Translations under genes and position numbers: made by a program | Assembly (NCBI GenBank): GCA_010093605.1 | Contig: MU004194.1 | Span: forward strand, 1,588,323-1,652,322 | Direction of reading: 5' to 3' | Length of the DNA: 64,000 nt | DNA from: Lophium mytilinum | Lineage: Eukaryota | Notes under the pieces: model-generated | What the model was told of the DNA's origin: nothing | The model's database searches: none | What the model saw: only the letters and a program-made list of their open reading frames with translations | Shown: positions 1 through 46,641 of the stretch, piece after piece | Layout: each line of letters begins with the position of its first letter | Numbering within the stretch: position 1 is the first letter of the stretch

Positions 1-3000
1 TCCTGCCAGCACTGACATAGCTCTCGTTCTCCGAATGCAATGCCTTAATAGGGACTTGATTCACAGCGTTGCAATAGCCAGCTGCTGTCGAGCGACGAGT
101 TCCCGTTTAGATAACTGAGATCTGACCACATCCATGCCCACGTACACAGAGATACCCACATCCGAACATGTATACAGCGCTATCTCGGAACAGCGCTTGT
201 CTGACATCAGCCTCTGTCCCAAAGCAGCAGTCTTCGAGAAGCTATTTCGGCCCCAACCCGCCACTCTTGAGGCTGAAAACGGTGTCAGCCTCATCATCAC
301 ACTGCTTCCTCCACCAACGACGGGTATCCCAGCCCTAGCACTCTCTCATCCTCGCTAACCGGGCGCCAGGGCCAACATAAAACCCACAAGATGAAGGACT
401 AGGTAGACCATAAGCGGGCTCGCAAGCACGCACCACCTCATCTATCGAATTAACCCTCTTCCCACCAATCCCACGTCTTTCGCACTGTGTTCGTCTGCTT
501 ACGAAGTCCCAGAAATAATGCTCCGGGCTACCAACCCCAGGAAAACAAGCCCATGTCCCAAGTTTAACTCCCGTGTTCACCGGCGCGCTCGATAACGGGC
601 ACGCAACGGTCCATCCACAATGGGGAGCCGAGTCCGCGCTGCCATGACCTCATACGCCTGTATGCAGCCTATCACGCACGCACTCGTTAATTGGGAGTGG
701 GAATTATCACGGTGAATTTAGAGGGTGCTGAGTAAACGTGCGGAATGGGCAACGTGCCCAGCCGAAGCGCTTAAAAATAGAGATCGGGGACGCTAGCGCA
801 CACTAATCGGTGCCGTCTGTGCGCGGGGGGGCATCGTGCACCTTTTCGAACGACGTCGCTCCATCCGATCGTCGAGCAAAGAGAAGCCCGCCGAAGAGCC
901 ACACCCCGCTTGCTGAAGATGACAGTTGTCGCGGCTCTAGTATAGCACTATCTACGCTTAGAGAATCTGCATGACGTTTCTACAGCCCGCCAGAACCTTC
1001 CCTGCCTTGGTAACTCTTCAACTAATAGCCACGCCAAGGGGAGAAGAGACACTTCGTATCGGATCCCCCCGTCTCTACCTCGAACTACGAGGGCCACTAG
1101 CTCCCCTAGAGGCGTCCGTTCCGCTAACTTCCCTATTCAAAGCATGCCAAATATATCCCCAAGCACTCCTCTGCGCGACTCGCTCGTTCTTGAGCCCTCG
1201 CTAACGAGCTCCAGACTCCCATCAAGCCACTGTCCCGAACAATTGCTGCAGTTGCTCAGTGCTTGCTCAGAGAACTGTCATGCCCGTCCCCATCATCTCC
1301 CTTCCCGCAAATCCCCTAATGCTGCCCTCACATGTAACTAGCTCGCTATACGAGAAATCATCCCATGCCTATTACTACCTACCCAGAGCTTGAGACATGA
1401 CAATTTCCTTCAGCTTGCTCACCGTTCGCCTGAGTCCGGTTGATCGTGCCCGTGTTCGCCTCCCTGCCTACTTTCTTGAACATACTACATATCACAACCC
1501 TTCCTCCACCCTCTTCATATCACTTGTCTCCGCCCCAAACCGACCACTTCCCTAATCCAATCCGGCCAAGACAGCCATCCATTACACAGCATCCATGAGG
1601 CTCCTATAAGCATCTGACAACCCACCTGCAGTCACCCACCGTGTCCCTGTCTCCAGATCGGCGGCGCCCCATCCGCCCCTTCGGTTCCTCTAGCCACCAG
1701 ACGCCCTCATCCTCTCACCGGCAGACAGCGCCCAGTCTCCACAGCCATCAGCGGCCGCCGGTTCGACCTGCCTCATCCCCCCGTCTCGGTGACCTCTTCT
1801 GGGGCCAAAAGCCAGGGCTCCCACACCACCACCTCTCCCATCCGAGTCCCGGGCGCCAGGTTACGCGAATCTGACTGAACGACATTCCCGTTGCCCAGCC
1901 AGACGGGTGCCGCTTCGTTTCGTGTCGTGTCTGCAGCCGTCCCACCTGGCCACAGCAGCATCCCTCGTCCTCAGCCCTCGCCCTACTCCCTCCTCTTGGC
2001 ACGACGTAGGTCAGTCCATCCACCGCGCCGGTCCACCACGCACCTGACCGGTCCACAGCACCAGGCCTGCACCCACCATCCACCTGCAGCTCCTGACATC
2101 TCTCGTGCAGCCCTAGCCCTCTTTCCGCGCTCTGACGCACCCATCGGCCCACTCTTAGACCCACCAACCCACCAACAACGCCAACCGTCTTTCCCGCACG
2201 TCCCCTCGTGCTACCAAACCGATCTCAGCCCCCAATCCACCCACACCCTTCTCCCGCCCTTCTACGCGCCTTCTAGCGCCCTTCCGTGCACCTTCTAGCG
2301 TCCTTCCTTTCACCCTTCCATCTTCCACGCTACTGCAGCCCACCCACCACCCCCAGCACCCGCATCACCCTTCCAGAAGCCTTCCTCTCTCGTCACCCGC
2401 ACGGAGCCCGCGCTGGCACTCGCCCTCGATTACGTCTCTCTCCTCCTGCTTACTGTCCCTGGCTCAGGATATTCTGAGCACCCACGGCAACCTCTAGCAG
2501 CATCCCCATCCCGCTTCTGCTGCTCTACTATTCTTGGCGGGCCGCCAGAGCATCAAGCCACCGCCTTTTCCCACTGGTTATCCGGGAAACCGGTTCGAGG
2601 CGCCGTTAGTTCTTGGGACCCAACGGGGGGTACGCACGGTTGTGTTTCTTTTTGTTGCTGTCTTTGCAAGCAGCACGCTTTTGGGTCTTGATAGCCAACG
2701 TCTTCTTTTCGCGTTCGTGCGCGTGCTCGTCTCGTCTCGTTGCTAAGTCCGGGCGGGCGCGGTTGGGGAGAAAATAGTAACTTGAGGCGTTCCCAGGCAC
2801 ACCCAAACGGAGCCCGAGCGATCCTTTCTTGGGGGTGCAGGCGTTGGGAATCCTGTACTTGTCGCGTGGCCGGGCTGCGGGAACGGCACCCACCACCAAC
2901 CGTGCGTCCGCGTGGTGTGCAACGTGGGTTTTCGCTAGGGAAGGGAGCCGGGAAAGCGGGTCCGCCGAGGCGCTGGGTCGGGGACTGGGGGATGGGGTGG

Positions 3001-3279
3001 ATGAGTGTGGGAGTGTGTATATAAGACGGGACGGGAGACGCAGTGTCGGGTTCCTAGCATCGACCATCAGCATCAGCTTCAGCAACACAACGACTTCCGA
3101 ACCCACACCACTCCACTAAAGAGTCATCCGAGAAAGAACTTCACTGTTTGCCCGACCTCATCACTTCAACTTTTTTCTCGATTCGAATATTCGACGAACT
3201 TCACTTCGACTCTTGATAGCGGCACTAGCGGATCTACTTCGCGGAGACGTTAGCACTTGAGCACACTTTTATACCTTTC

Positions 3280-3867
3280 ATGAGCGAAACGAACGAACCT
3301 TCAAACAAAGCATCCACACCCAGCCAGCAAGACCGACCAAACACCACCAGCGATCCGAACGAGCAAGCCCAGACCCAACAGGCCTGCCCTACACCAATAG
3401 TCGTCCTCGGATCAACCCACACGCCAGAGCCAGCATCACCACCCACCAACCAAACGCAAGACCCGTGCAATCCCACAGGCACTGCCAGCTCTCAACCAGA
3501 ACAGCCAGCCCTCAACCCAGCTCTTCTCCAACCACCACCAACCGAAGGGCCCTTCGCCTCCGCCCCATCTCCAGCCACAACCTCCAGCTCGACCACGACT
3601 TCAACCGGCGTCAGCACTCCCACCTCTACGTCAGGAGCCATCCCCGCTACCCAGGAACCCCAGACCTCGAACCCAGCAAGCATGTCCTCCTCCAGCTCCT
3701 CGTCGCCCGGCAACACCGGCACCTCAGGCCCCACGGGCAGCACCACGCAGTCCGGCGGCAATCCCGCGTACCACCTCCCCTACGCCCCGTTTCCCTTCCG
3801 CATGCCCGACGGCACGTCCGTCCGAGGGAGCGGCGGGAGCTCCAGCGGCGGCGGAAAGGGAAAGTAG
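3280..3867 (+). CDS. Hypothetical low-complexity Ser/Thr/Pro/Gln-rich protein (195 aa)
   Basis: Uninterrupted ORF with C-ending codon bias and a TATATAA at ~3017 upstream; no recognisable domain. Confidence 0.55.
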   Translation: MSETNEPSNKASTPSQQDRPNTTSDPNEQAQTQQACPTPIVVLGSTHTPEPASPPTNQTQDPCNPTGTASSQPEQPALNPALLQPPPTEGPFASAPSPATTSSSTTTSTGVSTPTSTSGAIPATQEPQTSNPASMSSSSSSSPGNTGTSGPTGSTTQSGGNPAYHLPYAPFPFRMPDGTSVRGSGGSSSGGGKGK

Positions 3868-12180: not shown

Positions 12181-12645
12181 GGCTTTGCGCGGACAACCCT
12201 CTCGTGTGAATATGTGAATGTCTGAGTAGAGCTCTACCGGAGGTCAATGCCGCAACCTCGATACACACGGGCCAATACGGGTCACGTGATGATGACCTCC
12301 TCAACACCAGTAATAACATCACCAGTGTGTGATCCGTATTATCATAGTCAGCATCCTTGTGAGAACGACTTTGACCAAGAGAGGGAAGGCTTCTATTATC
12401 ATGGGAAGATGCTAAGGCATTATTTCCATTTTCCATATTGAGCCTAGTGGCTACCTCGCCAACTCAACCTCCAGCCTCGCAGCTTAGGCACTCATCATCT
12501 CCCAGCTTCCTCATCTCGGAACACTTGCCCATCAGGCGTCCCTGCACACGACCATAGAATCTTCTTGAGCTGAACCTTATAGCGTTCTAGGCTTTTCAGC
12601 CCAACAAGTCACCGGTTCGGCCGCATTAGGATGTAAGCAGCTCCA

Positions 12646-14368
12646 ATGTGGCTCATTAATACGACCACTCTTAAGCTAGAGTTTTTCGTCAATCCCGAGA
12701 AAGCGTCTTACGCCATTCTATCACACACTTGGGGAGATGAAGAAGTCATGTTCCACGAATTACAGAGTCCCGACAAGGCAAGCTTCCAGAAGAAGGGGTT
12801 CGACAAAATCGCGCGAACTTGTGAAATAGCCCGTCAGCAAGGCCTCCAATATGCTTGGGTCGACACCTGCAGTATCGACAAGTCTAGCAGTGCCGAGCTT
12901 TCAGAGGCCATCAACTCGATGTTTGCATGGTACAAAAACTCAGCTGTTTGTCTGGCTTATTTGGAGGATCTCCCAGCCAGCGTTGATTTTGAAAATGGGC
13001 TTGCTTCTTGTAGATGGGTTAGCAGAGGCTGGACCCTACAAGAACTGATTGCGCCTCAAGAAGTGGAGTTCTACGACCAAGCCTGGACCAAAAGGACAAC
13101 CAAAAGAGCTTCGGCAGATCTTCTGGCGAAGGCGACTGGGGTTCAAGAAGCAGTGTTAGCAGACAGCGCCTACTTGACCAATCTATCCGTTGCTCAGCGA
13201 ATGTCATGGGTTTCTCGACGTCAGACTACACGAGCCGAGGACATCGCATATTGCATGTTGGGTATATTCGACATTCACATACCCCTCGTATACGGTGAGG
13301 GCGACAAGGCATTCAAGCGGCTGCAAGAGGAGATTGCAAAGCAGGTTCGAATCCCACTGTTGTCAATAACTCTTCTATCGTTTTTTCGTATGTTAATTGC
13401 ATTTACAGACTTGCGATCTGTCACTCTTTGCATGGCTGGCCCCGCTACCTGAGCCTTCCAGCGACCCCCAGAACTTCCGAGGAATATTTGCCAAGTCACC
13501 TGCAGAGTTTAGCGAAGGCTATAGGATAGTGCCTAGGAACACAATTGTCCCCCACAAAGAATTCACCATCACTAATCGAGGATTGCAAATCGAAGCAACA
13601 TTAGTACGCCTGATGTCCAACTACTCGCCTAACGATCTTGTATTCAATCTCGGTGTTTCTTGTTCTGATAGAGATAAAGTGCCCGGTGGCGAAGGCTGGA
13701 TAGGCATATACGTCCGGAAATCGGTCCACGGTTATGTTCGAGTATGGTCGCATAGACTGTGCATGTCCGAACAGCACGATAGATCACGTTGTGCTCGAGC
13801 GATGCTACACATTCGCAAGACAATCGACGAAAACGACATCGAAACGCTCCAAAAGCAATATTTGCGCGCGATACGAATTCAGGCTCTACCGGCTAATATC
13901 AATATAGATCAGATTCAACCTTTCGACTTGTGGGATAATCAGAAATCACTGTTCTTGGATCCTGGATCTGGGCTCAACGCTTACTGTCAGTTCACTGTTT
14001 CGGCTGGGTTGGCTGGGTTGGCTTTCCGAAGCGAGAGATTTGAGACTTTCTCTGCCATACTAGCTTGCTCCACTATGAGCTCCCCCCCAATGATAGAGAT
14101 GTGGAGCCAACAAGAAGAGGGATACAATAGAATATGCTCTTTCTTGAACCGAGCTAAGGAAGTTACAGACTATGTTTGTGTTGACTACCTGTTAAGAGAC
14201 TTTCTTACAATCAAAAGCGGGAACAAGTCAGTTGGGATATGTGACTTCGTGGATATGAAGAACGGCTGTCAAGTCAGACTTCAAGCTACGCTAAGCAACG
14301 TTACTGTAGAGGGTTCAGATGGATTCTTCGTGGAACTCTTCAAAAGCACAGTGATGATTGCAGAATAG
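12646..14368 (+). CDS. Heterokaryon incompatibility (HET) domain protein with unrecognised C-terminal region; intron 13345-13408
   Basis: 'MWLINTTTLKL', 'YAILSHTWGDEEV', 'WVDTCSIDKSSSAELSEAINSMFAWY', 'RGWTLQELIAP', 'AQRMSWVSRRQTTRAEDIAYCMLGIF', 'DLSLFAW', 'GIFAKSPAEF'. Confidence 0.93.
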
Positions 14369-30402: not shown

Positions 30403-33053
30403 TCAGACATTCCCGGGCCCCTTTCCGCTTGCATTTTTCTTCTTGTTTTCCCCCAAGAGGCGACGACGGATTGACAGTCCAGTTTTTGGAAGTCCGCCCT
30501 GCTTCTCATCGTTTCGACTCGTCTGACTACCAACTGTGGCTCCAGTCGCTGCACTCTGATTCGGCCCCATGTTTGCGCCTACTCCTTTCGATTTATCGTC
30601 CTTCTCACCACCCTCACTCGTCAACTTGGTATCAGAGGTCCACTGCCACTTCTTGAGCGCCCACAATAAGAGAACCATTGCGCCCCAGGTGAGTCCGCCA
30701 GTGATGATGATAGTGAGAAACTCAACTCCAACTACGAGAGCATTAACGTGGAGTACTTAGACAGTCAAAGCCCGTATAAAGAAGGTGGAGGACTTGCCAA
30801 AGATTCCAGCCATCTTTCTACCCGAGAAGACATCAGAGCTGCTGTTGCTGGATGAGTTTCCCGTGGATAATTTGCTGCCATTAGGAGTGTACTTTAGACC
30901 GCCGAACGTATCGATGTCTAGCGCAAAAAGACCGACTAAAAAGGACAGCGGAGTGAAAATGAGAGTGATGATGGTGAAGCCGATGACTACCAATGAGAGG
31001 AGTTTGGATTCGCGGGCCTCTTTGATGCTAGCAAGGGCTTGGTCCATACTCGCGGCCGTTCTCTTGAGATTCAATTTGTCTTGAATCACCTGCTGTACTC
31101 GTGCAGCATCCCCGTCGATCTTTTCGGTCCGCTTGCGATATGCAAGTATCATGTCCCTGGCATCGTCGACTTCTCTCCATTCTGGATCGCCGCTACGCCC
31201 TGATCCAAGGCAGCTGTTCATCACATCTTCTTGTTGGTTTAGGACGTCTTGGATCATGACAAGCTCGTCTCGGATGTCGGATATTATATGAATGAATTCA
31301 CCCTCTCTCTGGACGTCGACAACTTCATTGCGCATGTAATCGTCCACGTCAGATAAGACTGACACCACCGCTGTTTCGAAGATGTTCAGGGTGGGAGGAA
31401 ATCTTTCATTGCCGTTTTCGTATTCGGTCCCGAAAGCTTTGATCCGGCTTGCCATGATGAGGCACATTCGTAGGTTGGGACTACTTGTGAACTGACCCGG
31501 TGTATGGAAGGAGTTGCGGAATGACTCCATCACCCGGCCATCCTCATAATCGGTATAATCGTAGAAGGAGTTTTGGAAGTACTCATTCGCTGCGGTTTGC
31601 TCGCCCGACGCAAAAGCAGAAACCACGAAATTTTCCATACTCCAAAGCCATAGTTGCGGGACTAACAGGATGGGTAGGTGCTCGGTGCTTCCCGGCCTAA
31701 CTGATCCGTCGAAGTCTCTCGACACTACTTGGTCCTCGTTTCGCTTTTTCAGGGCATCAGGACCAAGCCCTGGATAGTAGGCTTCGTCAAGCGTTCGCGC
31801 CATGTGTATGATTTTGTCAGCGAATTCATGCTTGAAAAGGTCACTCGCTCCTTTCCTTTTGATTCTCATATTGCCGTGATATTTAGCCGAGCTCAAAACC
31901 AAACATGGAAACTAGCTTGTGTGAGTGTGGTTGATGAGAAGGGAGAGCATGTACATACTACAATGGTCGTGCTTTTCTCTTCCCTATTCCCTACTCCCAC
32001 TTCCAGTGTATACACTGGCTGCCTATACACTGGCTGCCTATACCACAGCAATGGGTCACCAGGAGGGTCTGATGGGTTCAGTGGCACGCGGCAGAAATCA
32101 GCCGGAAAAGGAGTGTACGGTGGTCGCATGGCTTCGATATCCCTTGAGAGTTTCTGGAAGGTATCAGCTTATGATTCCATGGACTGGGTTGTGCATACTG
32201 CAAGAATGACGCCCTAAACCTTGTAAGCAATTGATGGCTTGATGATGATAGATGTATGGAGTCAGACGACATACATTGGTAGATGGAACATGAATCCAAG
32301 TCAGGCTTTCACGATCATCATTATTATTAAGTGTGAGCCAGAACCTTTCGCTTTCCACGGTAGACGATCCCTTTCGCATGGCCGATATAGGCATTGAAAA
32401 TGAATCCCAACATCTGTATCCGTCACCAGGAGCCACAGGAGCCAAAGTAAAGACTGTAATAGACTCATCTGGGAAGTTTTTTATAAGGGTGTCGAACTCC
32501 AGTACTTCGTACATGTGTCGCTCTGGATCATTCCGCTTCGACCTATACCTTTGAAATGCTACTTCGGCGTCTCCAGACAGGGCGTGCGGATTAGCGCCGT
32601 GGACAAGAAGCAGCTCAGCGCAGTCGAATCTCATTGATTGTGCCGCAACGTGCAAGGGGGTCAGCTTTTGTGTACCCTTTTTGTTCACCTCCGACAGCTT
32701 GCCAGTTTTGTCAAGAACGGCCTTGAGTTGATCGTATTGAAGCCTCCTATTGTTCAGTGACTGTTGACGCATCATGAAGTCCGCGATGTCCACTGCAAAT
32801 GGTTGCCCAGCCTCAAGACCGTCCAAAATGACTTGGTTGTGAGCGACTAGTCGCGTGAGTTAGTCCGGACGGAAAGATGGAGACATCAAGTCTCTCCGCA
32901 AGGAGAAAACACACGTGAACCCATTCTATCATCGAGGTTGTTGATCTTATCCTGCGGCAAGTTGGTACCCAGTGATGCTCCTTGAGGCGATGCAGTACTC
33001 CCTCCTACCGCCGTGCTGGGAGGAACGCTGGCAGGAGGCGAGGAAGTGAACAT
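30403..33053 (-). CDS. Ankyrin-repeat protein with a C-terminal CorA-like two-TM domain; about six exons
   Basis: Ank 'TPLHVAAQ..AELLLVHGANP', 'WIHVPSTN', 'ILLVPQLWLW', 'DIRDELVMIQDVLNQQ', 'FTIITLIFTPLSFLVGLFALDI'; splice sites traced by eye. Confidence 0.82.
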
Positions 33054-37589: not shown

Positions 37590-38015
37590 GATAAATAGCT
37601 GCCGTACCTATTCTACTATAGTTTAGAAGAGGAATAGTCGCTTTTGAGAGCGAGACGGACCCCACTAGTCAGTTCTAAACCCACAGATCTTAGGTTCGAA
37701 AGAGGAAATGGACTTTTGTGACGTCAGTTTTCCCCTAAGAGAAAGGGTATCGCGTACCTCAGTACACAACAGTGTGTTGTCAGACGTTAATATACTTGGC
37801 CTGCCACGATCACGCTGCAATCCCGATGTAGGTCTCGGGGTTGTTCTGGGGTAACGATCGGCAAGGGCGGGATATGGCAAAATCCTGAAAAGGCAGGATG
37901 GTTCACAACAATAAGACCTTATCTTCTGAGAAGAGAAGGATCTCTCTAATGAGATATATAATTTGCAAATGGTGATTTTGATGAGGAGGAGCTGAGAGAA
38001 GCGGAGAAATTATAA

Positions 38016-38326
38016 ATTTGTCGGGTGCGAAATAGCGAAGAATCCCTTAGCGCGTTTCTCTCCGCGTTCCTCACCAAAATTTGTGTGAGAATCGCAGGGA
38101 GCACCACCTAATTGAATGTCAACTTGTTAATGTCCCCTTGATAAGGATACCAAAGGTTATCTACACTTGCTAAACACGCAGAGAGCCTGATTTACCCTTT
38201 TCGAAGTGACGTTGAGAGGTTGACATTCAATTGGGTGGTGCTCCCTGCGATTCTCACACAAATTTTGATGAGGACCGCGGAGAAAAACGCGCTAAGGGAT
38301 TCTTCGCTATTTCGCACCCGACAAAT
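38016..38326. mobile_element. 311-bp foldback element / MITE-like with 108-bp terminal inverted repeats
   Basis: 38016-38123 is the reverse complement of 38219-38326 with 4 mismatches by eye; non-coding 95-bp spacer; no clear TSD. Confidence 0.75.
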
Positions 38327-38529
38327 AGCTACAGTGCTTCCCTAGTGCTCCCCAAGATAGACTAGGCTATGCACGTCCCTTATGGTCTTCACTTTGCGCG
38401 GACCCTTCTTTGCTATCACTCCAACCCATCTGCAATTACTCCTAGTCTCATCATCGCAGCACGTTCGATCATAAACCTTCTACAGTTACGCAAGAAAAGC
38501 AGCCAGCGGGCGACGACGAGAAGCGAAAA

Positions 38530-39405
38530 TTAGTCTTCTGGAACGACGCAAAGACACTCCTCTCCCGTGCCCTCATCCATCAGCTCTTCGCCATCTAGCC
38601 CGAATTCACCTCCGGTTGCATCATCTTCCGCAAGCCCTTCAACCTCAAACCCCAGCTCCAATTCTTCCTGAGCCCTCTTCTCATACATCGCCTTGTACCC
38701 ATCCAGATCGTATAGCGCCCCTTTGTTGTACTGCTTATGGCTGACTTCTCCGGTCTTCTTGACTTTGATATGTCTCAACCGAAACGCAAAGACAAAGTCA
38801 TCCGCCCCTTCGAAAGCGACATCAGTCTTCGTCGTCTGATGCCCCTCGAACTTTGGACCTCCCGCGAAAGGAACTCCGCATGGGATCGTCGCGTCAACGC
38901 CTACATGTGCGTAGATGCCATTGTCTCTCATATACGAGTTCAGCCCCGAAGCCCCCGATGCAATCATGACTCCGGTAATCATAAAGAGCCTTTCACGAAA
39001 CTTGTTGTTGATAATGTATTCTCGGACAGAATCCTCCATGACAGTCGCTCTGACATATTCCTGACTCGGCACGAAGTACCGAGTGCACATGTTCTTTGCC
39101 ATCAATAGCTGGCTATCCTCGTTTTTCCAACCCACACTCACATCACCGCCGGCACCCACCACGAATTGTAGAAAGGAGCCCCACACTCCGATTCGCCCGC
39201 TCTTAGTCTTCGCATGACACGACGTCCAGTTTGTCTGATTGTGTGTATGAATAGCAGATGCTTCCAATGGCAGCGGCATGGTGTTTATCGGCTCGTCGGG
39301 CAAGGAGGGCGAGCTAATGATGCTACCGAGTCTGATCGGGCCTTCGGGGGGGCAAGTGCGAGTGGGCGCTAGGAAGTAACATGGTTTCTGCCCTGCCTTC
39401 GACAT
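38530..39405 (-). CDS. Fungal gasdermin-like pore-forming protein (HET-Q1/RCD-1 family), 291 aa
   Basis: 'PPEGPIRLGSIISSP', alternating beta-strand segments 'GAGGDVSVGW', 'TRYFVPSQEYV', 'LFMITGVMIA', 'DFVFAFRLRHI', 'KGALY' then an acidic tail; the motif order matches HET-Q1 as I recall it; adjacent S8 protease. Confidence 0.85.
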   Translation of the reverse strand: MSKAGQKPCYFLAPTRTCPPEGPIRLGSIISSPSLPDEPINTMPLPLEASAIHTHNQTNWTSCHAKTKSGRIGVWGSFLQFVVGAGGDVSVGWKNEDSQLLMAKNMCTRYFVPSQEYVRATVMEDSVREYIINNKFRERLFMITGVMIASGASGLNSYMRDNGIYAHVGVDATIPCGVPFAGGPKFEGHQTTKTDVAFEGADDFVFAFRLRHIKVKKTGEVSHKQYNKGALYDLDGYKAMYEKRAQEELELGFEVEGLAEDDATGGEFGLDGEELMDEGTGEECLCVVPED

Positions 39406-39557
39406 GGCAGATCCTGGAGTCTCGTCTGAGAGTGTGGCCTTTGATTCCGCACTTCTCTCGTCACTGATCAATCAGGTTACCTAGGAGCTTGGTTTCGAGA
39501 AAGTGGTGCTCATTCTTTTTCTTGATGCTACTACGAATGGGTCAGCTCAAACGGGCA

Positions 39558-40178
39558 TCAAGTACGGAAAGAAAGGTGCCAAGCTACCCGCGTAGGAACT
39601 TCGAAAGGTGATCCTCGGCCGGCTGAACCTGCAGCCCTTGGCGGGCTTCCAATCGCTTGATCGGTCCGGTCTGAAAAACTCGAGCCCTCTTGCGAATCCG
39701 TCACGGTCAGACTGACTTCTAGACCACTTTGAGCTCTTTCTTCGGTATCGAGTCGGGCCTCTTCTCCGTTGTATGGCCCCTCTTCAACGATAACAAGTCT
39801 ATCGTTCCTTTCTATTCTATTTCTTTCCAAGCTGAGCAATTCTCTTCGCAGCCCTTGTTTGTTAGTAGGCAAAGATTTTCGTCGCGCAAGCTTGGACTGT
39901 GAACGTCCGCCTTGACAGCAACAGAGACAGCAGACGACAAATATCGCGACTAGCCCAAGAAGAGAACCGATCGCTGCACCGGCAATCACGCCCGGACTTT
40001 GGTCGCTAATCCTTGGTTCGATGTATCCAGTCGAAGCAACCGAGTCAGATTCTTTGGTTCGATAGATGGTGGTTATGTAGGTTGTAGTTGATCTTTCGAT
40101 AGTGAGCACAATCGGAGGTGGTGTGCTAGTTGGTACGGGCGAAATCCATGCCGGTCCTCGTAGTGCTAAGTGGGGCAT
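39558..40178 (-). CDS. Hypothetical single-pass membrane protein with juxtamembrane Cys cluster
   Basis: Thr-rich N-region, TM 'GVIAGAAIGSLLGLVAIFVV', 'CCLCCC', basic stop-transfer; both ends could be changed by splicing. Confidence 0.55.
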   Translation of the reverse strand: MPHLALRGPAWISPVPTSTPPPIVLTIERSTTTYITTIYRTKESDSVASTGYIEPRISDQSPGVIAGAAIGSLLGLVAIFVVCCLCCCQGGRSQSKLARRKSLPTNKQGLRRELLSLERNRIERNDRLVIVEEGPYNGEEARLDTEERAQSGLEVSLTVTDSQEGSSFSDRTDQAIGSPPRAAGSAGRGSPFEVPTRVAWHLSFRT

Positions 40179-40591
40179 CAGTCTCGTGAAGTCATCGCTA
40201 AGTCATTCTGGAAATCAGGATCCAAAGTCGCGAGACGCAAGTTATGGAAAATGAGCTTGAAGCGCCGATACCCTGCTTCTCGATGTATGTGAAGTTATAG
40301 CAAGAATGGGGCTATGGAAATCCTAGAAATTGGAAATCAGGAGCGGGGAAACTTGTATCATCTGACGGCGGCCCAAAGCCAGTGGTACGACCAAATACAT
40401 GATGAAGCCTCATTTGCGCTACCTAGGTACGTGATACCGTACCACGGCTAACTCTTCTTCAAGAGCAGCCAGCTTTTGCTCCTCGACTACCGAACGACTC
40501 TCCAGCTGCTAATGTTTGCCACCAGAGTTTCTGCATCGAATCAACCCGCTCTTTCCGCAACAGCCAGGCCAGATCACCAAAGCCGTCCAAG

Positions 40592-43500
40592 ATGAGTAGA
40601 CGCCGGGCCCGATCTTGTGCTCCCGAAAGGACCGCCATCGTACGACTTGCTGAAGAAGGAGACCAGCATAGAAAAAGTGGAAATCATAGCGAGGCTACTC
40701 AATCGTACCGTCAAGCTGCTCAGCAATTTGAAGATCTCTATGGCGCTGAAGCCCACCGAACCCTGCTATTGAGAGATAAATTAGCTACTAGCCTTCATGA
40801 TGCTGGAGACTTCAAAGGAGCTGCGTCATGCAACGAGGAAACTCTACACAGGCGACAGAAGAGCGCACCCAACGAATCATCCGAGACATACGACAAATGG
40901 CTGAAAGATGTACTGGAAAACCGAAGACGACTGGCAGTAGATTACGTTAAGCTGGAGAGGGTTTCCGACGCCCTAACGCAATACCGAGGAGTCCTGCATG
41001 ATGCAGGTTCGTCGCACTTGTCTCTGGGCCACGATGTCTTTTGTCGGGATCGGAACAATCTTGCACAGGTACTATCAAGAACAGGAGTATCACAAGATGC
41101 GAGGGAAGCAGTAGATCTAAATTTCAATACCCTGAAAACTGCGGAGGCTACACTTGGGAAGAGTCATAGAGAGGTATCGAAATCACGGTACTCACTTGGG
41201 CGGGAGCTCGCGCGACTAGGGAAAATCGACGATGCTACGGAGCATTTTCGAGACAACGTCGTCATCCTGAGTGCGCTTTCTTGGGGAGAGCGGGACAGTA
41301 GAGACCTAGAAGGCGTTTTCCAAGATTCTAAAGTCATGCTTCAGAGGTGCATGCGGAATGGCCAAGAGACTAGAAGACCGAGAGACGAATGCAACGAAGC
41401 CGAGAAACAAGACATGGAACCTCGGACGACGAGCTCAGTAAGACATACAAACATACCCGACGAAAAGCCGCCGAATGCGATATCGCAGACAAAAGAAGTA
41501 AATCAAAAGGGAAAGAACCGGTCTGATCTAGAGCTACTTCAAGACGCTGGTCTCTCCAAAACAGCGGCTGAGAACAACAACGCAGACGGAAAAAGGGAGG
41601 ATCAAACCGTCAGTACGAGTGCTTCGGAAATAAACCCAAACGAGGTATTACCAGCGAGACAGATACAGCCCGTATTAGTCGCAAAAGCCCTCGTCCCATC
41701 AGCACAAACCCAATACCACGAAGCGTCCATCAAGAACATCATTAACAAGCCTCCAAGACTGGAGGGAAAACTTGGACAAAAATCCACGGAGCAGCAAACT
41801 AGTCTGGGTACAGGCCACCTGTTACCAACGGAAGACAGTACTCAAAAGCCGCCACAGTCTCAGGAAGTCATTCGCAAGAAACAGCTTGATGATCCAAACT
41901 CGGCCCTCGAGTCAAACACCGATAAACTTTCCATTGACAAACGAGAGACAATTCCCAGACTAGCATCACCCAAACAGTCACCTCTCCTGGAAATCAAAGC
42001 GGCACCAACTTCCGGAGACCTCCCGCTACTTGATACCCTTCAGGGAGCCAGTGTCGGGCCCCTGACCCATGAACCGGGAGATGAGAAAAAGCCCAGCCGA
42101 TCAGACAGCGTCGTCTCCACACCTGTACCAACCATCGTGGAGCCAATCGAACGTAGCTCAGATCTTGGAAATCTTGTCGACGACTTAACTCCCGCTATTA
42201 GCACCCCATTGCTCCATCTCTCCGTGCCAGATGTTTCTGAACCCAGCAATATACCTGGAGGTTGGAAGGCCGAATATGAGGCCGAAGATGATCCTCCCGG
42301 GATTTTTGAGTCTTTCAAGCCTCTCAGGCAAGCAAGATCCACTGCTAATCTAAGACCTTCCAACCTTCACCTCGATTTCGCAGGCAGACCAAGCCGATCT
42401 TTGTCGGTGTCGAACCTGAGGCCTCGAAACCAATCGCATTCGCGATCTTCCAGCATTTCGCGCTCCTGTGTTGGACATGACAGAGGGTGAGTACTACTGG
42501 AAAGCTTTTCGTACCTGCGGCTAATAAAACTTAGAGCGGACCTTGCGGATAAATGGTTCCAAGACCTAGAAAAAGACACACACCCGATGCTTGAAAAGTA
42601 CAGCAATTTCACACCCGATGCCGATGGTAAGAAAACTTACAAGCATGTCAAAATCGCAATACTAGACTCCGGTGTGGCACGGAAGGCGGACAAAAGAAGT
42701 GGAGAGAACAATATACCGTCCACGATTCAGCTTGCACGACCCCATATCAAAGAAGGAAAAATGAAGGGTGTGTCCGGCACTTTACCCTGGGACGAGGATG
42801 TCATTGGTCATGGCACTCACGGGGTCGGTCTTTTACTGAAAGTTTGCCCCTGGGCCGATATCTATGTGTATCGGGTCATCGAAAGCCAGCTGGGGTCTAT
42901 CCGCCAAGACCTCGTAGCAGCAGCGATAGAGGATGCAGCCGGCAAAGTTGACATCATTTCAATGTCCTTGGGATGGGAGCGAGACGACCCGCAGGTTGGT
43001 GAAGCCCTTGAACGCGCCAAGAAGAAAGGTGTACTGCTCTTCGCGGCTAGTTCCAACGATGGAGTCAATGGTGGCATGTCATTTCCAGCACGAGCGGACG
43101 AGGTTATTGCAATCGACTCAGCCAACTACCACGGCGAACCATCGCCATTCAATACCCCCGAAGATGACCGAAAGCAACGATTCACTGCTCTCGGCGAAGA
43201 CGTTGAATCAGCCTTTCCGCCGGCACTTCAAGGCTTGGATGACGATAGTGATGGTTTTTTGAGGGTTGGTTTCAAACGCAGTACAGGAAGTTCGTGCGCA
43301 ACGCCTATCGCCGCGGCGACTGCGGCGTTGATCCTAGAGTTTGCTAAACAGCCGCCGCTGTGCTACGACCCCCGGGTGCTGAACCATCTAAAGACTCTGA
43401 AAGGGATGCGGTACGTCTTTAATGAGTTGGTTAGTCAAAAGAAGAGCCAGACGTCACGCTTCAATCACCTGAACATTAGAAACCTACTATGCTGTGACGA

Positions 43501-43678
43501 GGGGTATCTTGATGGTGGTGATTGGGCGGACTCTTCTTTTGCCCCTCGATATCGAGCCGCCAGGAAAATTATCGACTGTCTACAACGTTTCCTTGAACCA
43601 GATTTGGGAGCGCCTATGCTTGACGAAATGAGCCGTGCAACTCGCAAGATGTTTGAAAGAAAGTCAACTTGGACCTAG
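40592..43678 (+). CDS. Cytosolic TPR-repeat / subtilisin-like (S8) serine protease, 1012 aa; intron 42487-42534
   Basis: N-terminal KLC-type TPRs ('LYGAEAHRTLLLRDKLA', 'LGKSHREVSKSRYSLG'); long disordered linker; triad 'AILDSG', 'GHGTH', 'TGSSCATP', oxyanion 'AASSNDG'; no signal peptide; the intron joins the two ORFs in frame. Confidence 0.9.
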
Positions 43679-44319
43679 TTCATCACCTTCGTACAGGTCA
43701 ACGTAACGCCACCCTCGCTGTTCTTTTAACTACACTATCCTTCTCTATCTCCACCCGCACATAGCCGATATCAAACACTGAACTCTTTAGTAATGTAGGG
43801 AGGAACTCTAGGGTCTGAACATGGTGGTTATGGCCGCGTTCGATTGCGATACTCAAACCCACGGGCATTCCAAATTTAGATCGCAGATGTCATACTCAGC
43901 CACGGACAGGATCCCAAGGTCTCATTCACCCCGGCAGCTGGGAAACAACCTTCGGGACGTACTTGGTGGCGAAACTACTATTACCAACTCCAGTTCATCT
44001 ATCGATGCAAAATCGACGACTGTGAACGAAACCTCCACGACAACCCGCGGCATTTATAGTTGATTATGCTGCATTGCCAGCAACATTTCTCTAACAACTT
44101 CATCCATCTAGCTCGTAATCGCGACCGAGTGCGGAAAAGCAGGAGAAATCGGTAGTGATTTGATGGTGGACTCAAGAAGAACTTTCAGAGATGTCAAGGA
44201 GGATGTGAATGACTTGGATGAAGCGACAAACATCAAGTTAGGCAAGGATATCTGGTTTAGCTGGTCACGTCACGTCTTATGATCTAACAGATAGGCAATC
44301 TTAAATTCATTCCTCCATT

Positions 44320-45876
44320 TCAGCACTCGTATACTCTATACAAGACTTTCTCAAAAACCAGATCTACCCCAACTTCCGCAAAAATAGCGATGAAATCCTC
44401 CTGTTCTGCCTCTGGGATCGCACAGTACGTCCGCACAACCACGCGACGAAGCCACGGCAGGCAATCTGGAATGTACGGAACCAGTTCGGCAAGCGGCGTG
44501 AATGATATGTCGTTCTCATCATGCCTCATCTCGTCCTCCTCTTCCTCGTCCTCGTCCTCCGCTTCCTCGTCCTCTTGACCCCAAGGGCCATAGGCATCCT
44601 CCTCGTCCTCCAGCTCCTCGTCCGCCTCCACGCCATCCTCATCGACATCGTCTTCCTCGAATTCGTCCTGTTCATCCTCCTCGTCTTGGTAATGCCAAGT
44701 AAGGAAGACAAGTTCTTCGAGCGACTTCGGCAAACTCAACGCAATCTTATTCCCCGCACGCGCCGGGGACATCGTCTCGTTGATGAGGACGCGATCATCC
44801 ACTTCCAGCGTCTGCAATTGCTCGAATGCCACGAACGTCCTGACCGGCGCCCTGATCTCATACGCCGGGAGCATGCGAAAGCCCTGCTGATTCCTCTTCA
44901 CCGCATGCACATCGAGCTTAAGGTGCTCGATCGTGCCAGAATGCGAGAGGAACGAGTCGACTACCTGGTTCCACGTGAACGGAGCGAAGCTCAGGTCCGC
45001 CTCCAACCGCGTCAAGCTTTGGAAAGACTTGAAGAAAGAGCTGAAAAGGGTGGGCCAGAACACCCCGGTTATGCAGACTTCTTTGACTGCAGAAGCGTTT
45101 TCCAGAGCTGCGAAGTGGGGGAGCGATTCCATGTCATCCGTGCTAACGATGACAAGCCGCTTGAGTAATGGGAGACGTAAAAGCGAGTCGTCTAGCCTGT
45201 TTCCGATAGCTCCATGGATCGGCTGATTTTTGTCGAAATGATACGCGCCGAACGAGCGCAAAGATCCAAAGATCGGGGCGGAAGGCTCGTTGGCCAGCTG
45301 TCGCAAGAGGAGCGGGACGCCAGACTCGGTGATCACATAAAACATGCGAAGATTCGGCATTTGCGACAGAACACCAGCCAGGAAGGCGATGTAAGGTGAC
45401 TCTTGGATTGTCTGGAGCCAAGAATTTCTGACATTGTCAGAGAGGCGCATTTCCCGGACTGTTTTATACAGAAGCTTCCAAACATTGCGTGGCACAGCTT
45501 GTTCAGCTTGCAGTCTCCGTTGGCCACTCCAGAACTTGACGCTTAGGTCACGCACTTTGACGCCTAAACCTGGAGTAGTGTTCAGTGTCCGGAAGAGCTG
45601 CCACAGCTTTCGGAAGCTGGTTTCTTCCCCAAAGGCCTCTAGGCTGATATCATGGTATATCGCCTCCTGGGTGCATCGGTGGAACTTGTGGGAAACGAGT
45701 GCCGTCTTACTGGGTTTCCTCAAGGTTTCCGACTTGACCATTGTGAGTATCTCCTCTGGCAAGTCTTTGATGGTAGCTGGTGCCCGTTGGAGCTGGACGT
45801 TCGAGTGATTTTCGAACAGGGTCGCGATCGGGGGAGAAGCATACTTTTTGTTGGATGATTCTGAGGACTGTACCAT
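44320..45876 (-). CDS. F-box-like / leucine-rich hypothetical protein with acidic insert (518 aa)
   Basis: 'IKDLPEEILTMV', 'ALVSHKFH..QEAIYHDI', 'LFRTL..PGLGVKVRDL', LRR-like 'MPNLR', 'LPKSLEEL'. Confidence 0.7.
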   Translation of the reverse strand: MVQSSESSNKKYASPPIATLFENHSNVQLQRAPATIKDLPEEILTMVKSETLRKPSKTALVSHKFHRCTQEAIYHDISLEAFGEETSFRKLWQLFRTLNTTPGLGVKVRDLSVKFWSGQRRLQAEQAVPRNVWKLLYKTVREMRLSDNVRNSWLQTIQESPYIAFLAGVLSQMPNLRMFYVITESGVPLLLRQLANEPSAPIFGSLRSFGAYHFDKNQPIHGAIGNRLDDSLLRLPLLKRLVIVSTDDMESLPHFAALENASAVKEVCITGVFWPTLFSSFFKSFQSLTRLEADLSFAPFTWNQVVDSFLSHSGTIEHLKLDVHAVKRNQQGFRMLPAYEIRAPVRTFVAFEQLQTLEVDDRVLINETMSPARAGNKIALSLPKSLEELVFLTWHYQDEEDEQDEFEEDDVDEDGVEADEELEDEEDAYGPWGQEDEEAEDEDEEEEDEMRHDENDISFTPLAELVPYIPDCLPWLRRVVVRTYCAIPEAEQEDFIAIFAEVGVDLVFEKVLYRVYEC

Positions 45877-46641
45877 GTTGACAGATGATAGAGATAGGGG
45901 AAAATTGTTGGGGCGAGACCTTTCGGCAGTAGGTGTCGAGTATGATACTCAGCTGTGGGTTGCAAGTGTTGGAAAGTTGTGCTGTGTGGTTACGCGGTGG
46001 GTGGTGGTGATGAAGGAAAGACAATGTGTGGAGGCGATAGTATTTATATAGTCGACGGAGGTGGTGTTTTCGTTAATCAGATTAACAAGTCACTGAAGAA
46101 CATTGAATGCGCTCAATAGCAAGAAACATGAAGTTCCGGAGTATACAGGAGTCGTGAAAGTGAGCATCACGTGACTAGCGAAAATGTAACCTTTGAAGCG
46201 CCAGGAATGGAGTCGGTACATACCTGCTTACCCGTGTATGACCTCCTTCATCCCGTTATAAGAATCTTAGATAATATATGGGGTCCAAGACAGCGCAGAT
46301 TTAGACTGCAAAGAGACGAAGAGGTACACTTAAATGCTTGAATTTGGGAGTATATGAGCTCGTCGCTGATTAATGCAATTTCCTGCCAGCGGGTGTGGTG
46401 CTCTGCACTGGTAGGATTTTGGAAGGACGGATGGTACTTCAAAGATGTGTATAGCCCACTAGCCCTATCGGAGGTAGCCTCACGACTTTCATTGAAGGAC
46501 CAAAGTGCTTGAATTTCATCAGATTCGGAGTTATAGAATAACTATGAAGGACCCTGAAACAGTGCCAGGAAGGAGTAAAAATGTTGTTGAGATATTATCT
46601 GAGCTCGCTCAAATCTGTTATCCCCCCCAGCCTGTGGAGCC

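Follow-up and report, generated by a model that had tools for sequence, protein, structure and literature searches.

Introduction

Fungi have their counterpart of pyroptosis in protease-gasdermin gene pairs, and in Podospora anserina the S8 protease HET-Q2 activates the gasdermin HET-Q1, which is cut after F238 in a reaction that requires L237, F238 and the catalytic triad (Clave 2022, PMC8851545). As described there, HET-Q2 is a 366-aa protease with no signal peptide, no I9 propeptide and the triad D35/H105/S266; cleavage of HET-Q1 at F238-A239 has also been reconstituted in vitro, in a study whose text presents Podospora HET-Q2 as a simplified single-domain version of these proteases (Su 2026, PMC13475620). 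According to the text of Clave 2022, a protease gene lies within 10 kb of 80% of 1,884 fungal gasdermin genes, the N-termini of 1,374 of 1,601 HET-Q2-like proteins exceed 100 aa and often carry tetratricopeptide (TPR), ankyrin (ANK) or WD40 repeats, and a truncated form of the TPR-CHAT protease Q2L-6 processes its neighbour Q1-6. A 2025 review (PMC12881547) calls such proteases 'multidomain molecular sensors' in which WD40, TPR or ANK repeats are joined directly to the protease, and names their activating stimuli as a major open question. Here we analyse a gene of this kind from Lophium mytilinum, a single gene at positions 40592-43678 (+) of a 64,000-nucleotide stretch of contig MU004194.1 (the window, in whose positions all coordinates below are given unless another locus is named); its product, KAF2492480.1, joins a TPR block, a long linker and a C-terminal S8 protease.

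A preliminary description of this DNA had proposed that the gene is a one-component, inflammasome-like sensor. We found that the locus is a two-gene protease-gasdermin module of the described het-Q1/het-Q2-like class: the protein has the S8 domain, and a het-Q1 homolog lies well within 10 kb, with start codons 1186 bp apart. The 'one-component' label does not hold, as this divergently transcribed gasdermin is the likely substrate and executioner, and the idea of a new one-component system was rejected on the further ground that the exact pair is already catalogued. Row 622 of Dataset S1 in Clave 2022 couples KAF2492478.1 (het-Q1 homolog) with KAF2492480.1 (Peptidase_S8) from CBS 269.34, and row 502 of Dataset S2 gives the protease as 'N-ter 717 aa, TPR; Peptidase_S8; C-ter 86 aa'. 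The underlying idea of a repeat-bearing sensor-protease agrees with the proposal already made for the class in the 2025 review. The locus thus adds no new kind of system and is a clean, compact example of the TPR-S8 subclass that lacks a nucleoside triphosphatase (NTPase) domain. What we add is an independent confirmation of the pairing, RNA support for a corrected start codon and leader (start 40592 over the database model, via a 99-nt 5' intron and an overlapping upstream open reading frame (uORF)), a predicted gasdermin cut after Y232 (codon 38710-38712), which would free a 59-aa acidic tail, and a conserved, mutable tryptophan-acidic linker motif that could latch onto the kinesin-light-chain-like TPRs.

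Results

The protease gene and its gasdermin neighbour

The S8 module is encoded entirely by the second coding exon, in which we located the following features (residues are numbered from ATG 40592; A2 is an alignment of 17 sequences):

42535..43678, + strand: coding exon 2, the whole S8 module, 380 aa and stop TAG
42536..42577, + strand: pre-S8 helix motif ADLADKWFQDLEKD (clade-wide D.WF..L), its F invariant in A2
42641..43351, + strand: Peptidase_S8 core (Pfam, alignment A2, PDB subtilisin alignments)
42665-42667, + strand: catalytic Asp D676, motif LDSG
42809-42811, + strand: catalytic His H724, motif GHGTH
43055-43057, + strand: oxyanion Asn N806, motif SSND
43292-43294, + strand: catalytic Ser S885, motif GSSCATP
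43352..43675, + strand: S8 C-terminal extension, ~108 aa, clade-conserved GG.W...S.R..AA..I (A2)

The exon-2 product matches Peptidase_S8 with an expectation value (E) of 6.7e-21 (75.3 bits vs a cut-off of 21.8; aa 36-272 of that product), and the Asp, His, oxyanion Asn and Ser, whose codons we verified, are invariant in all 17 sequences of A2, so that the C-terminal S8 protease proposed in the preliminary description stands with its Asp-His-Asn-Ser set intact. Its closest PDB matches are the intracellular serine protease 7y6m (E 2.4e-14) and subtilisin BPN'. The D.WF..L helix precedes the catalytic Asp by ~35 aa in long and short relatives alike, and a conserved intron falls exactly at the border between the S8 module and the N-terminal part.

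The absences noted in the preliminary description were borne out as well. NACHT, NB-ARC and Inhibitor_I9 gave no Pfam match at E<=1 in either exon product, and there is no signal peptide, the best 10-residue Kyte-Doolittle mean in the first 50 aa being 0.37. One Walker-A-like string, AEATLGKS (aa 184), is the sole G/AxxxxGK[ST] occurrence in the protein; it lies inside a TPR helix and is best taken as chance. Since the NACHT/NB-ARC NTPase that defines such proteins is missing, the protein is, by its domain content, not a NOD-like receptor (NLR) or other signal transduction ATPase with numerous domains (STAND). As it has neither an I9 match nor a hydrophobic N-terminal core, both of which are likewise lacking in HET-Q2 as described (PMC8851545), it belongs among the intracellular, cytosolic subtilases; the missing I9 and signal peptide do not exclude it from S8.

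The partner gene is transcribed away from the protease gene:

38530..39405, - strand: fungal gasdermin (HET-Q1/RCD-1 family), 291 aa, KAF2492478.1, divergent

As a single sequence, it matches Neurospora RCD-1-2 (E 1.3e-5) and RCD-1-1 (E 5e-5; both 8jyz) over nearly the full length of these proteins, and its 57 relatives at E<=1e-5 are all unnamed ascomycete or environmental proteins. A profile of 38 such sequences matched RCD-1-2 (8jyz_B) with E 4e-24, RCD-1-1 (8jyz_A) with E 5.1e-22 and the cryo-electron microscopy structure of the HET-Q1 pore (9uv9_A) with E 1.3e-13, over profile positions 7-220. By these profile matches the neighbour is a gasdermin. In the family alignment a FVFAFRLR strand is followed by a near-invariant K-G-A-L-[FY] segment, G229-A230-L231-Y232 in the window protein, and the 59 residues after Y232 (6.4 kDa) contain 21 D/E vs 3 K/R, with an isoelectric point of 4.05. 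Because HET-Q1 needs L237-F238 and is cut after F238, we predict that the window gasdermin would be cut after Y232, a correspondence of Y232 with HET-Q1 F238 that is a positional analogy, not an alignment. We also observed that the acidic C-terminal tail of this gasdermin clade (38530-38709, - strand, in the window) ends in a conserved G-E-x-C-x-C-V, here ECLCVV.

Recurrence of the gene pair

A HMMER search of 1.84 billion representative proteins returned 6031 relatives of the S8 module at E<=1e-3, 54 of them at E<=1e-30. Among the best 150 are 69 relatives of at least 500 aa; 35 of these were scanned with Pfam (E<=1e-5). Most often the 35 long proteins showed the S8 match only (16/35) or an additional TPR (9/35) or DUF7580 (7/35) domain, and a Patatin domain, a Thioredoxin_7 domain and an S8-NACHT-WD40 NLR architecture were each found once (1/35 each).

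The pairing with a gasdermin recurs among these relatives. When three TPR-S8 relatives were traced to accessions, Dataset S1 of Clave 2022 listed a het-Q1 homolog beside two of them, Saccharata KAF2087530.1 and Diplodia OMP83012.1, in both cases with consecutive accession numbers. Independently, metagenome contigs searched with the gasdermin profile yielded 11 loci, of which 8 contain an S8 relative (tblastn, E 3.6e-68 to 3e-4); the three loci without one are contigs of 1.5-3.8 kb, and two of the 11, L004 and L005, which yielded the same figures, are probably a single sequence filed twice. In L001 and L002, a window-like TPR block (E 3e-19 and 3e-18) stands between the S8 part and the gasdermin, and the same divergent TPR-S8 layout is kept with 1.2-1.5 kb between the gene starts; L005 has an N-terminal open reading frame (ORF) with strong TPR_10/TPR_12 matches. 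The relatives for which DNA is available share 34-35% protein identity. A comparison of the intergenic DNA with that of L001 and L002 gave no significant similarity (best E 0.4), and no shared promoter element was found.

Two observations stand beside these results. In L011 (positions 810-3704 of that contig), the gasdermin relative lies in two pieces (810-1088 and 2197-2304), perhaps owing to an intron or to a disruption of the gene, and its orientation to the S8 relative is convergent, not divergent. Within Lophium mytilinum itself, Clave 2022 lists a second pair, KAF2491074.1 with the Patatin-S8 protein KAF2491073.1 (Dataset S1 row 621, Dataset S2 row 501), and three gasdermins in the genome (Dataset S3).

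Splice structure and start codon

The unspliced protease gene shows two ORFs that share a frame (40427-42490 and 42491-43678, +) and are parted by one TGA. The following elements resolve it into one gene:

40399..40599, + strand: uORF, 33 codons, from ATG 40399, spliced over the 5' intron, to stop TAG 40597-40599
40427..40525, + strand: 5' leader intron, 99 nt, GTACGT..GCTAAT..CAG, skipped in the run X1 contig
40592..42486, + strand: coding exon 1, 631 codons + 2 nt, TPR block and linker (ORF translation)
42487..42534, + strand: 48-nt phase-2 intron with the in-frame TGA, GTGAGT..GCTAAT..TAG (contig, database protein, relatives)

With the 48-nt intron removed, the frame from ATG 40592 to TAG 43676-43678 encodes 1012 aa (111.9 kDa), ...GHDR being fused to ADLADKWF... 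via a split Gly codon; the GCTAAT of this intron lies fourteen bases before its end. The preliminary description had postulated exactly this splice and asked for a check on RNA, and three lines of evidence now bear it out. First, the sole public run with this stretch (run X1, stored as contigs, its type 'RNA?' guessed), mapped on 38000-46200, contains a 7537-nt contig that covers 38430-46113, gasdermin and protease genes included, with 0 mismatched letters and only two joints, both with GT..AG ends, which skip the 48 nt of 42487-42534 and the 99 nt of 40427-40525 (joint positions placed after stated shifts of +1 and +2, respectively). A contig identical to the genome but without two canonical introns is hardly explicable except as complementary DNA; as four genes on both strands lie within it, it cannot establish one transcript. 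Second, the deposited protein (P0005, KAF2492480.1, 'hypothetical protein BU16DRAFT_594086', 1063 aa) is 100% identical over the protease part and uses the same junction (...GHDR-G-ADLADKWF...). Third, the position is conserved: L001 has a phase-2 intron of 50 nt (GTATGC..CTAAC..AG) and L002 one of 48 nt (GTATGT..AG), each 3 codons before the AD.WF helix, vs 4 codons in the window.

The deposited model and our reading differ at the 5' end. As inferred from P0005, the database model uses the same 5' donor with an acceptor at 40463, giving a 37-nt intron (40427-40463) that adds 51 N-terminal residues (MKPHLRYLEQPAF...). The acceptor used in the contig gives the 99-nt intron, which puts the upstream ATGs 40399 and 40402 out of frame, so that in this RNA-supported form no ATG of the long frame precedes ATG 40592; the start at 40592 is for this reason better supported than that of the deposited model, and the preliminary description, which had begun the protein there, is upheld over the database. 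In the same leader the 33-codon uORF runs past the start of the main ATG, with an overlap of 8 nt.

TPR block and linker

Exon 1 encodes a repeat block followed by a long tract of low complexity:

40652..41350, + strand: N-terminal TPR block, aa 21-253, kinesin-light-chain-like TPR_10/TPR_12 (Pfam)
41372..42486, + strand: low-complexity linker, aa ~261-632, unconserved and length-variable among relatives
42254..42292, + strand: tryptophan-acidic motif PGGWKAEYEAEDD, aa 555-567, ~70 aa ahead of the S8 module, coordinates verified, with a putative function only

Over aa 21-220, exon 1 matches TPR_12 (E 7.2e-10, 39.4 bits vs a gathering cut-off of 30.1) and TPR_10 (E 1.5e-6, 28.5 bits vs 27.5). 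Residues 39-253 align to the N-termini of an Alternaria protein (P0007; 35% identity, E 1e-27) and a Neofusicoccum protein (P0009; 31%, E 8e-20), and by these alignments the TPR block is conserved as a unit. By Atlas features it resembles TPR_12/TPR_10 clusters (score 0.94-0.95), one of them named 'bacterial kinesin light chain'. The earlier statement that these TPRs are of the fungal-NLR type is fair at the Pfam level, in that Dyrka 2014 took PF13374 (TPR_10) as the TPR signature of fungal NLRs and modelled these motifs on kinesin light chain. Highly conserved internal repeats, which are enriched in NLR sensor domains, were not found, the TPR repeats being divergent, and the only tandem repeat at the DNA level in the gene is one 12-nt, 2-copy array in the linker. 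Against PDB sequences the TPR piece gave insignificant matches only (best E 0.21), a search of a 5.8-billion-protein set returned the query alone and is uninformative on the occurrence of the block in NLRs, and NCBIfam gave sub-threshold matches only (FxSxx_TPR, QhpE, mycosin).

The linker, also foreseen as low in complexity in the preliminary description, comprises ~370 aa rich in S/P/E/K, with 58% S/T/P/Q/N/E/K/G. In A2 it neither aligns nor keeps its length, which ranges from ~200 to 550 aa among relatives that share the TPR and S8 parts, and its conserved islands are short and limited to the tryptophan-acidic motif and basic-x-x-Ser sites. Of 15 TPR-S8 proteins examined, 6 (the window protein, P0007, P0008, P0009, P0010 and P0097) carry a P-x-x-W-acidic motif at a distance of 61-79 aa ahead of the S8 helix, in linkers where tryptophan is scarce (0-6 each). 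The basic-x-x-Ser sites, RSLS, RNQS and RSSS (aa 602-621; 42394-42456, +), stand directly before the S8 module and are possible phosphorylation sites; relatives have a conserved R..RS island at a similar place.

Other genes in the window

One ORF separates the two genes of the pair:

39558-40178, - strand: intervening ORF of 206 aa, one predicted membrane helix

It matches no Pfam, NCBIfam or PADLOC family, and none of the 11 related loci has a counterpart, so that it was rejected as a probable non-member of the module; as a lead only, its Atlas look-alikes are 'Mid2 domain' proteins (score 0.91). Downstream, at 44323-45948 (-), lies a convergent ORF of 542 aa from stop to stop with a long Asp/Glu-rich stretch and an F-box-like LPEEIL segment seen by eye, with no Pfam match at E<=0.01; its plain ATG-to-stop translation is absent from the protein collection, so that the deposited model differs. 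Farther away, an ORF at 12637-13449 (+) has a HET (heterokaryon incompatibility) domain (E 4.2e-13), another cell-death-associated family, and adjacent ORFs at 30757-32859 (-), which may be exons of one gene, encode ankyrin repeats (E 1.4e-6) and a stretch that weakly resembles CorA, its match (E 5.4e-6) falling short of the cut-off.

Discussion

A probable gasdermin-activating protease

We are fairly confident that the gene is the protease half of a het-Q1/het-Q2-like gasdermin cell-death module, for which we propose four steps. The N-terminal part would keep the S8 module inactive or away from its substrate; a cue acting on the TPR block would lift this restraint; the protease would then cut the neighbouring 291-aa gasdermin in its KGAL[FY] segment, by our prediction after L231-Y232, and thereby remove the 59-aa acidic inhibitory tail; and the freed gasdermin N-domain would oligomerise into membrane pores and kill the cell. 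Cleavage of the neighbour and the ensuing cell death are the most likely outcome by homology to HET-Q2/HET-Q1 and Q2L-6/Q1-6, and the parts played by autoinhibition and by a cue, as well as the exact position of the cut, are putative. That the protease lies next to its lethal substrate, with one transcript-like contig covering both, argues that something holds it in check, and the TPR-linker part is the obvious candidate to exert it, much as the text of Clave 2022 assumes for Q2L-6.

Several points weigh against this reading. The experiments that we found in the literature concern HET-Q2, Q2L-6 and the CHAT pair of another ascomycete, and none of those accounts describes a TPR-S8 protein. RNA support for the splice comes from a single contig of one run whose RNA type is guessed. 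The conserved L-[FY] lies 22 residues past the FAFRL strand here vs ~30 in HET-Q1, if PDB chain numbering equals residue numbering. In Saccharata and Diplodia the paired genes carry consecutive accessions, but here the annotated 206-aa ORF intervenes; and for Westerdykella KAF2275199.1, a close relative, Dataset S1 of Clave 2022 gives no entry next to a gasdermin.

The same module could serve development and not immunity or non-self recognition, with an internal cue, for example phosphorylation of the basic-x-x-Ser sites, activating the protease and killing cells in sporulation or fruit-body formation. A 2026 preprint reports that a het-q1/het-q2-like pair of another ascomycete is needed for spore-chain maturation and that its proteins occur in dying cells; RSLS, RNQS and RSSS at aa 602-621, with the conserved R..RS island of the relatives, offer candidate sites for such a cue, and one transcript-like contig from an ordinary culture sample covers both genes. 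The case in the preprint, however, uses a CHAT protease, not S8, and since the proposal concerns the biological role, it is compatible with the same biochemical mechanism; we regard it as rather unlikely.

We think it improbable that the protease is constitutively active, with the TPR block as a substrate recruiter or scaffold and with control exerted through expression or through incompatibility between polymorphic partners as in Podospora het-Q. Stand-alone HET-Q2 is seemingly active without an N-terminal domain, purified HET-Q2 cutting HET-Q1 in the published assay, and in the leader that the RNA supports, the 33-codon uORF, by its overlap with the main ATG, would be a means of expression control. 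Yet an unrestrained protease beside a co-expressed gasdermin would be self-lethal, and the long N-termini of 1,374 of 1,601 HET-Q2-like proteins (PMC8851545) argue for a regulatory role.

Among the ways in which a restraint could be lifted, we see little likelihood in a tripwire, in which gasdermin cleavage would start once a foreign protease had severed the linker and thereby detached the S8 module from the TPR block. In its favour are the length, low complexity and probable exposure of the linker, and an intron that cleanly separates the S8 module from the remainder; nevertheless, a linker of ~200-550 aa that is unconserved among relatives is unlike a specific decoy site and fits a tether better, and its sole conserved islands are the tryptophan-acidic motif and the basic-x-x-Ser sites. 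Lastly, that the gasdermin is an incidental neighbour and the TPR-S8 protein an intracellular processing protease with other substrates, as the intervening ORF and the Westerdykella relative might suggest, is most improbable given that the pairing recurs in 8/11 environmental loci and 2/3 checked relatives and that a protease gene is found no farther than 10 kb from 80% of 1,884 fungal gasdermin genes (PMC8851545).

Returning to the main reading, a probable gasdermin-activating protease restrained by its N-terminal part, the conserved linker motif suggests one way in which the restraint might work. Kinesin light chain TPRs bind tryptophan-acidic short motifs, as the literature has it (PMC13078783 and PMC5450233), and because the linker carries a conserved motif of this kind, a latch in cis is conceivable: the kinesin-light-chain-like TPR block would bind PGGWKAEYEAEDD of its own linker and hold the protein inactive, until a competing foreign or danger-derived tryptophan-acidic protein, or phosphorylation of the basic-x-x-Ser sites, opens the latch and releases the protease onto the gasdermin. 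This is a speculative proposal that we consider improbable. If true, it would amount to a defined activation switch without an NTPase, serving an entire subfamily of the fungal sensors that act on gasdermins, would indicate which type of ligand to look for and would give a first mechanistic handle on how such proteases are restrained and switched on.

Comparison with known systems

The kinesin light chain shares with the window protein the TPR_10/TPR_12 repeat type, and the window linker carries a P-x-x-W-acidic motif; this is a resemblance only, the direct match to KLC1 in the PDB being insignificant (E 0.94). Bacterial gasdermin-protease operons similarly join a gene for a protease to one for a gasdermin whose short C-terminal peptide is inhibitory, which is a predicted role of the acidic tail in the window gasdermin; the window pair is eukaryotic, intron-bearing and divergent, and the similarity is weak (the PADLOC 'subtilase' model matches the protease at E 4.4e-11 and the bGSDM model the gasdermin at E 4.1e-5).

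Within fungi, the S8-NACHT-WD40 NLRs (for example P0068, 1675 aa) belong to the same S8 clade (E 4.8e-29 to the window S8) and fall within the gasdermin-associated class as published (PMC8851545), but they have the S8 domain at the N-terminus, followed by NACHT and WD40, whereas the window protein has the opposite order and no NTPase. HET-Q2 and the window protease are both cytosolic S8 enzymes without signal peptide or I9, of similar size (366 aa vs the 380-aa exon-2 product) and with comparable triad spacing (D35/H105/S266 vs D44/H92/S253 in exon-2 numbering), in which respects the exon-2 product matches HET-Q2 in its entirety, and both are genetically tied to a short-tailed fungal gasdermin. 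As described, HET-Q2 is S8 alone and its gene an idiomorph of het-Q1, so that the partners meet only after cell fusion; in contrast, the window protein has a 632-aa TPR-linker N-terminus and its gasdermin is adjacent in the same genome. Finally, the Q2L-6/Q1-6 pair of P. anserina differs in its protease, which is a caspase-like CHAT enzyme and not S8, and it resembles the window pair in having N-terminal TPRs, a C-terminal protease, a length of ~1000 aa and an adjacent gasdermin; there, the authors took the full-length protein as probably repressed, and the truncated form processed the gasdermin (PMC8851545).

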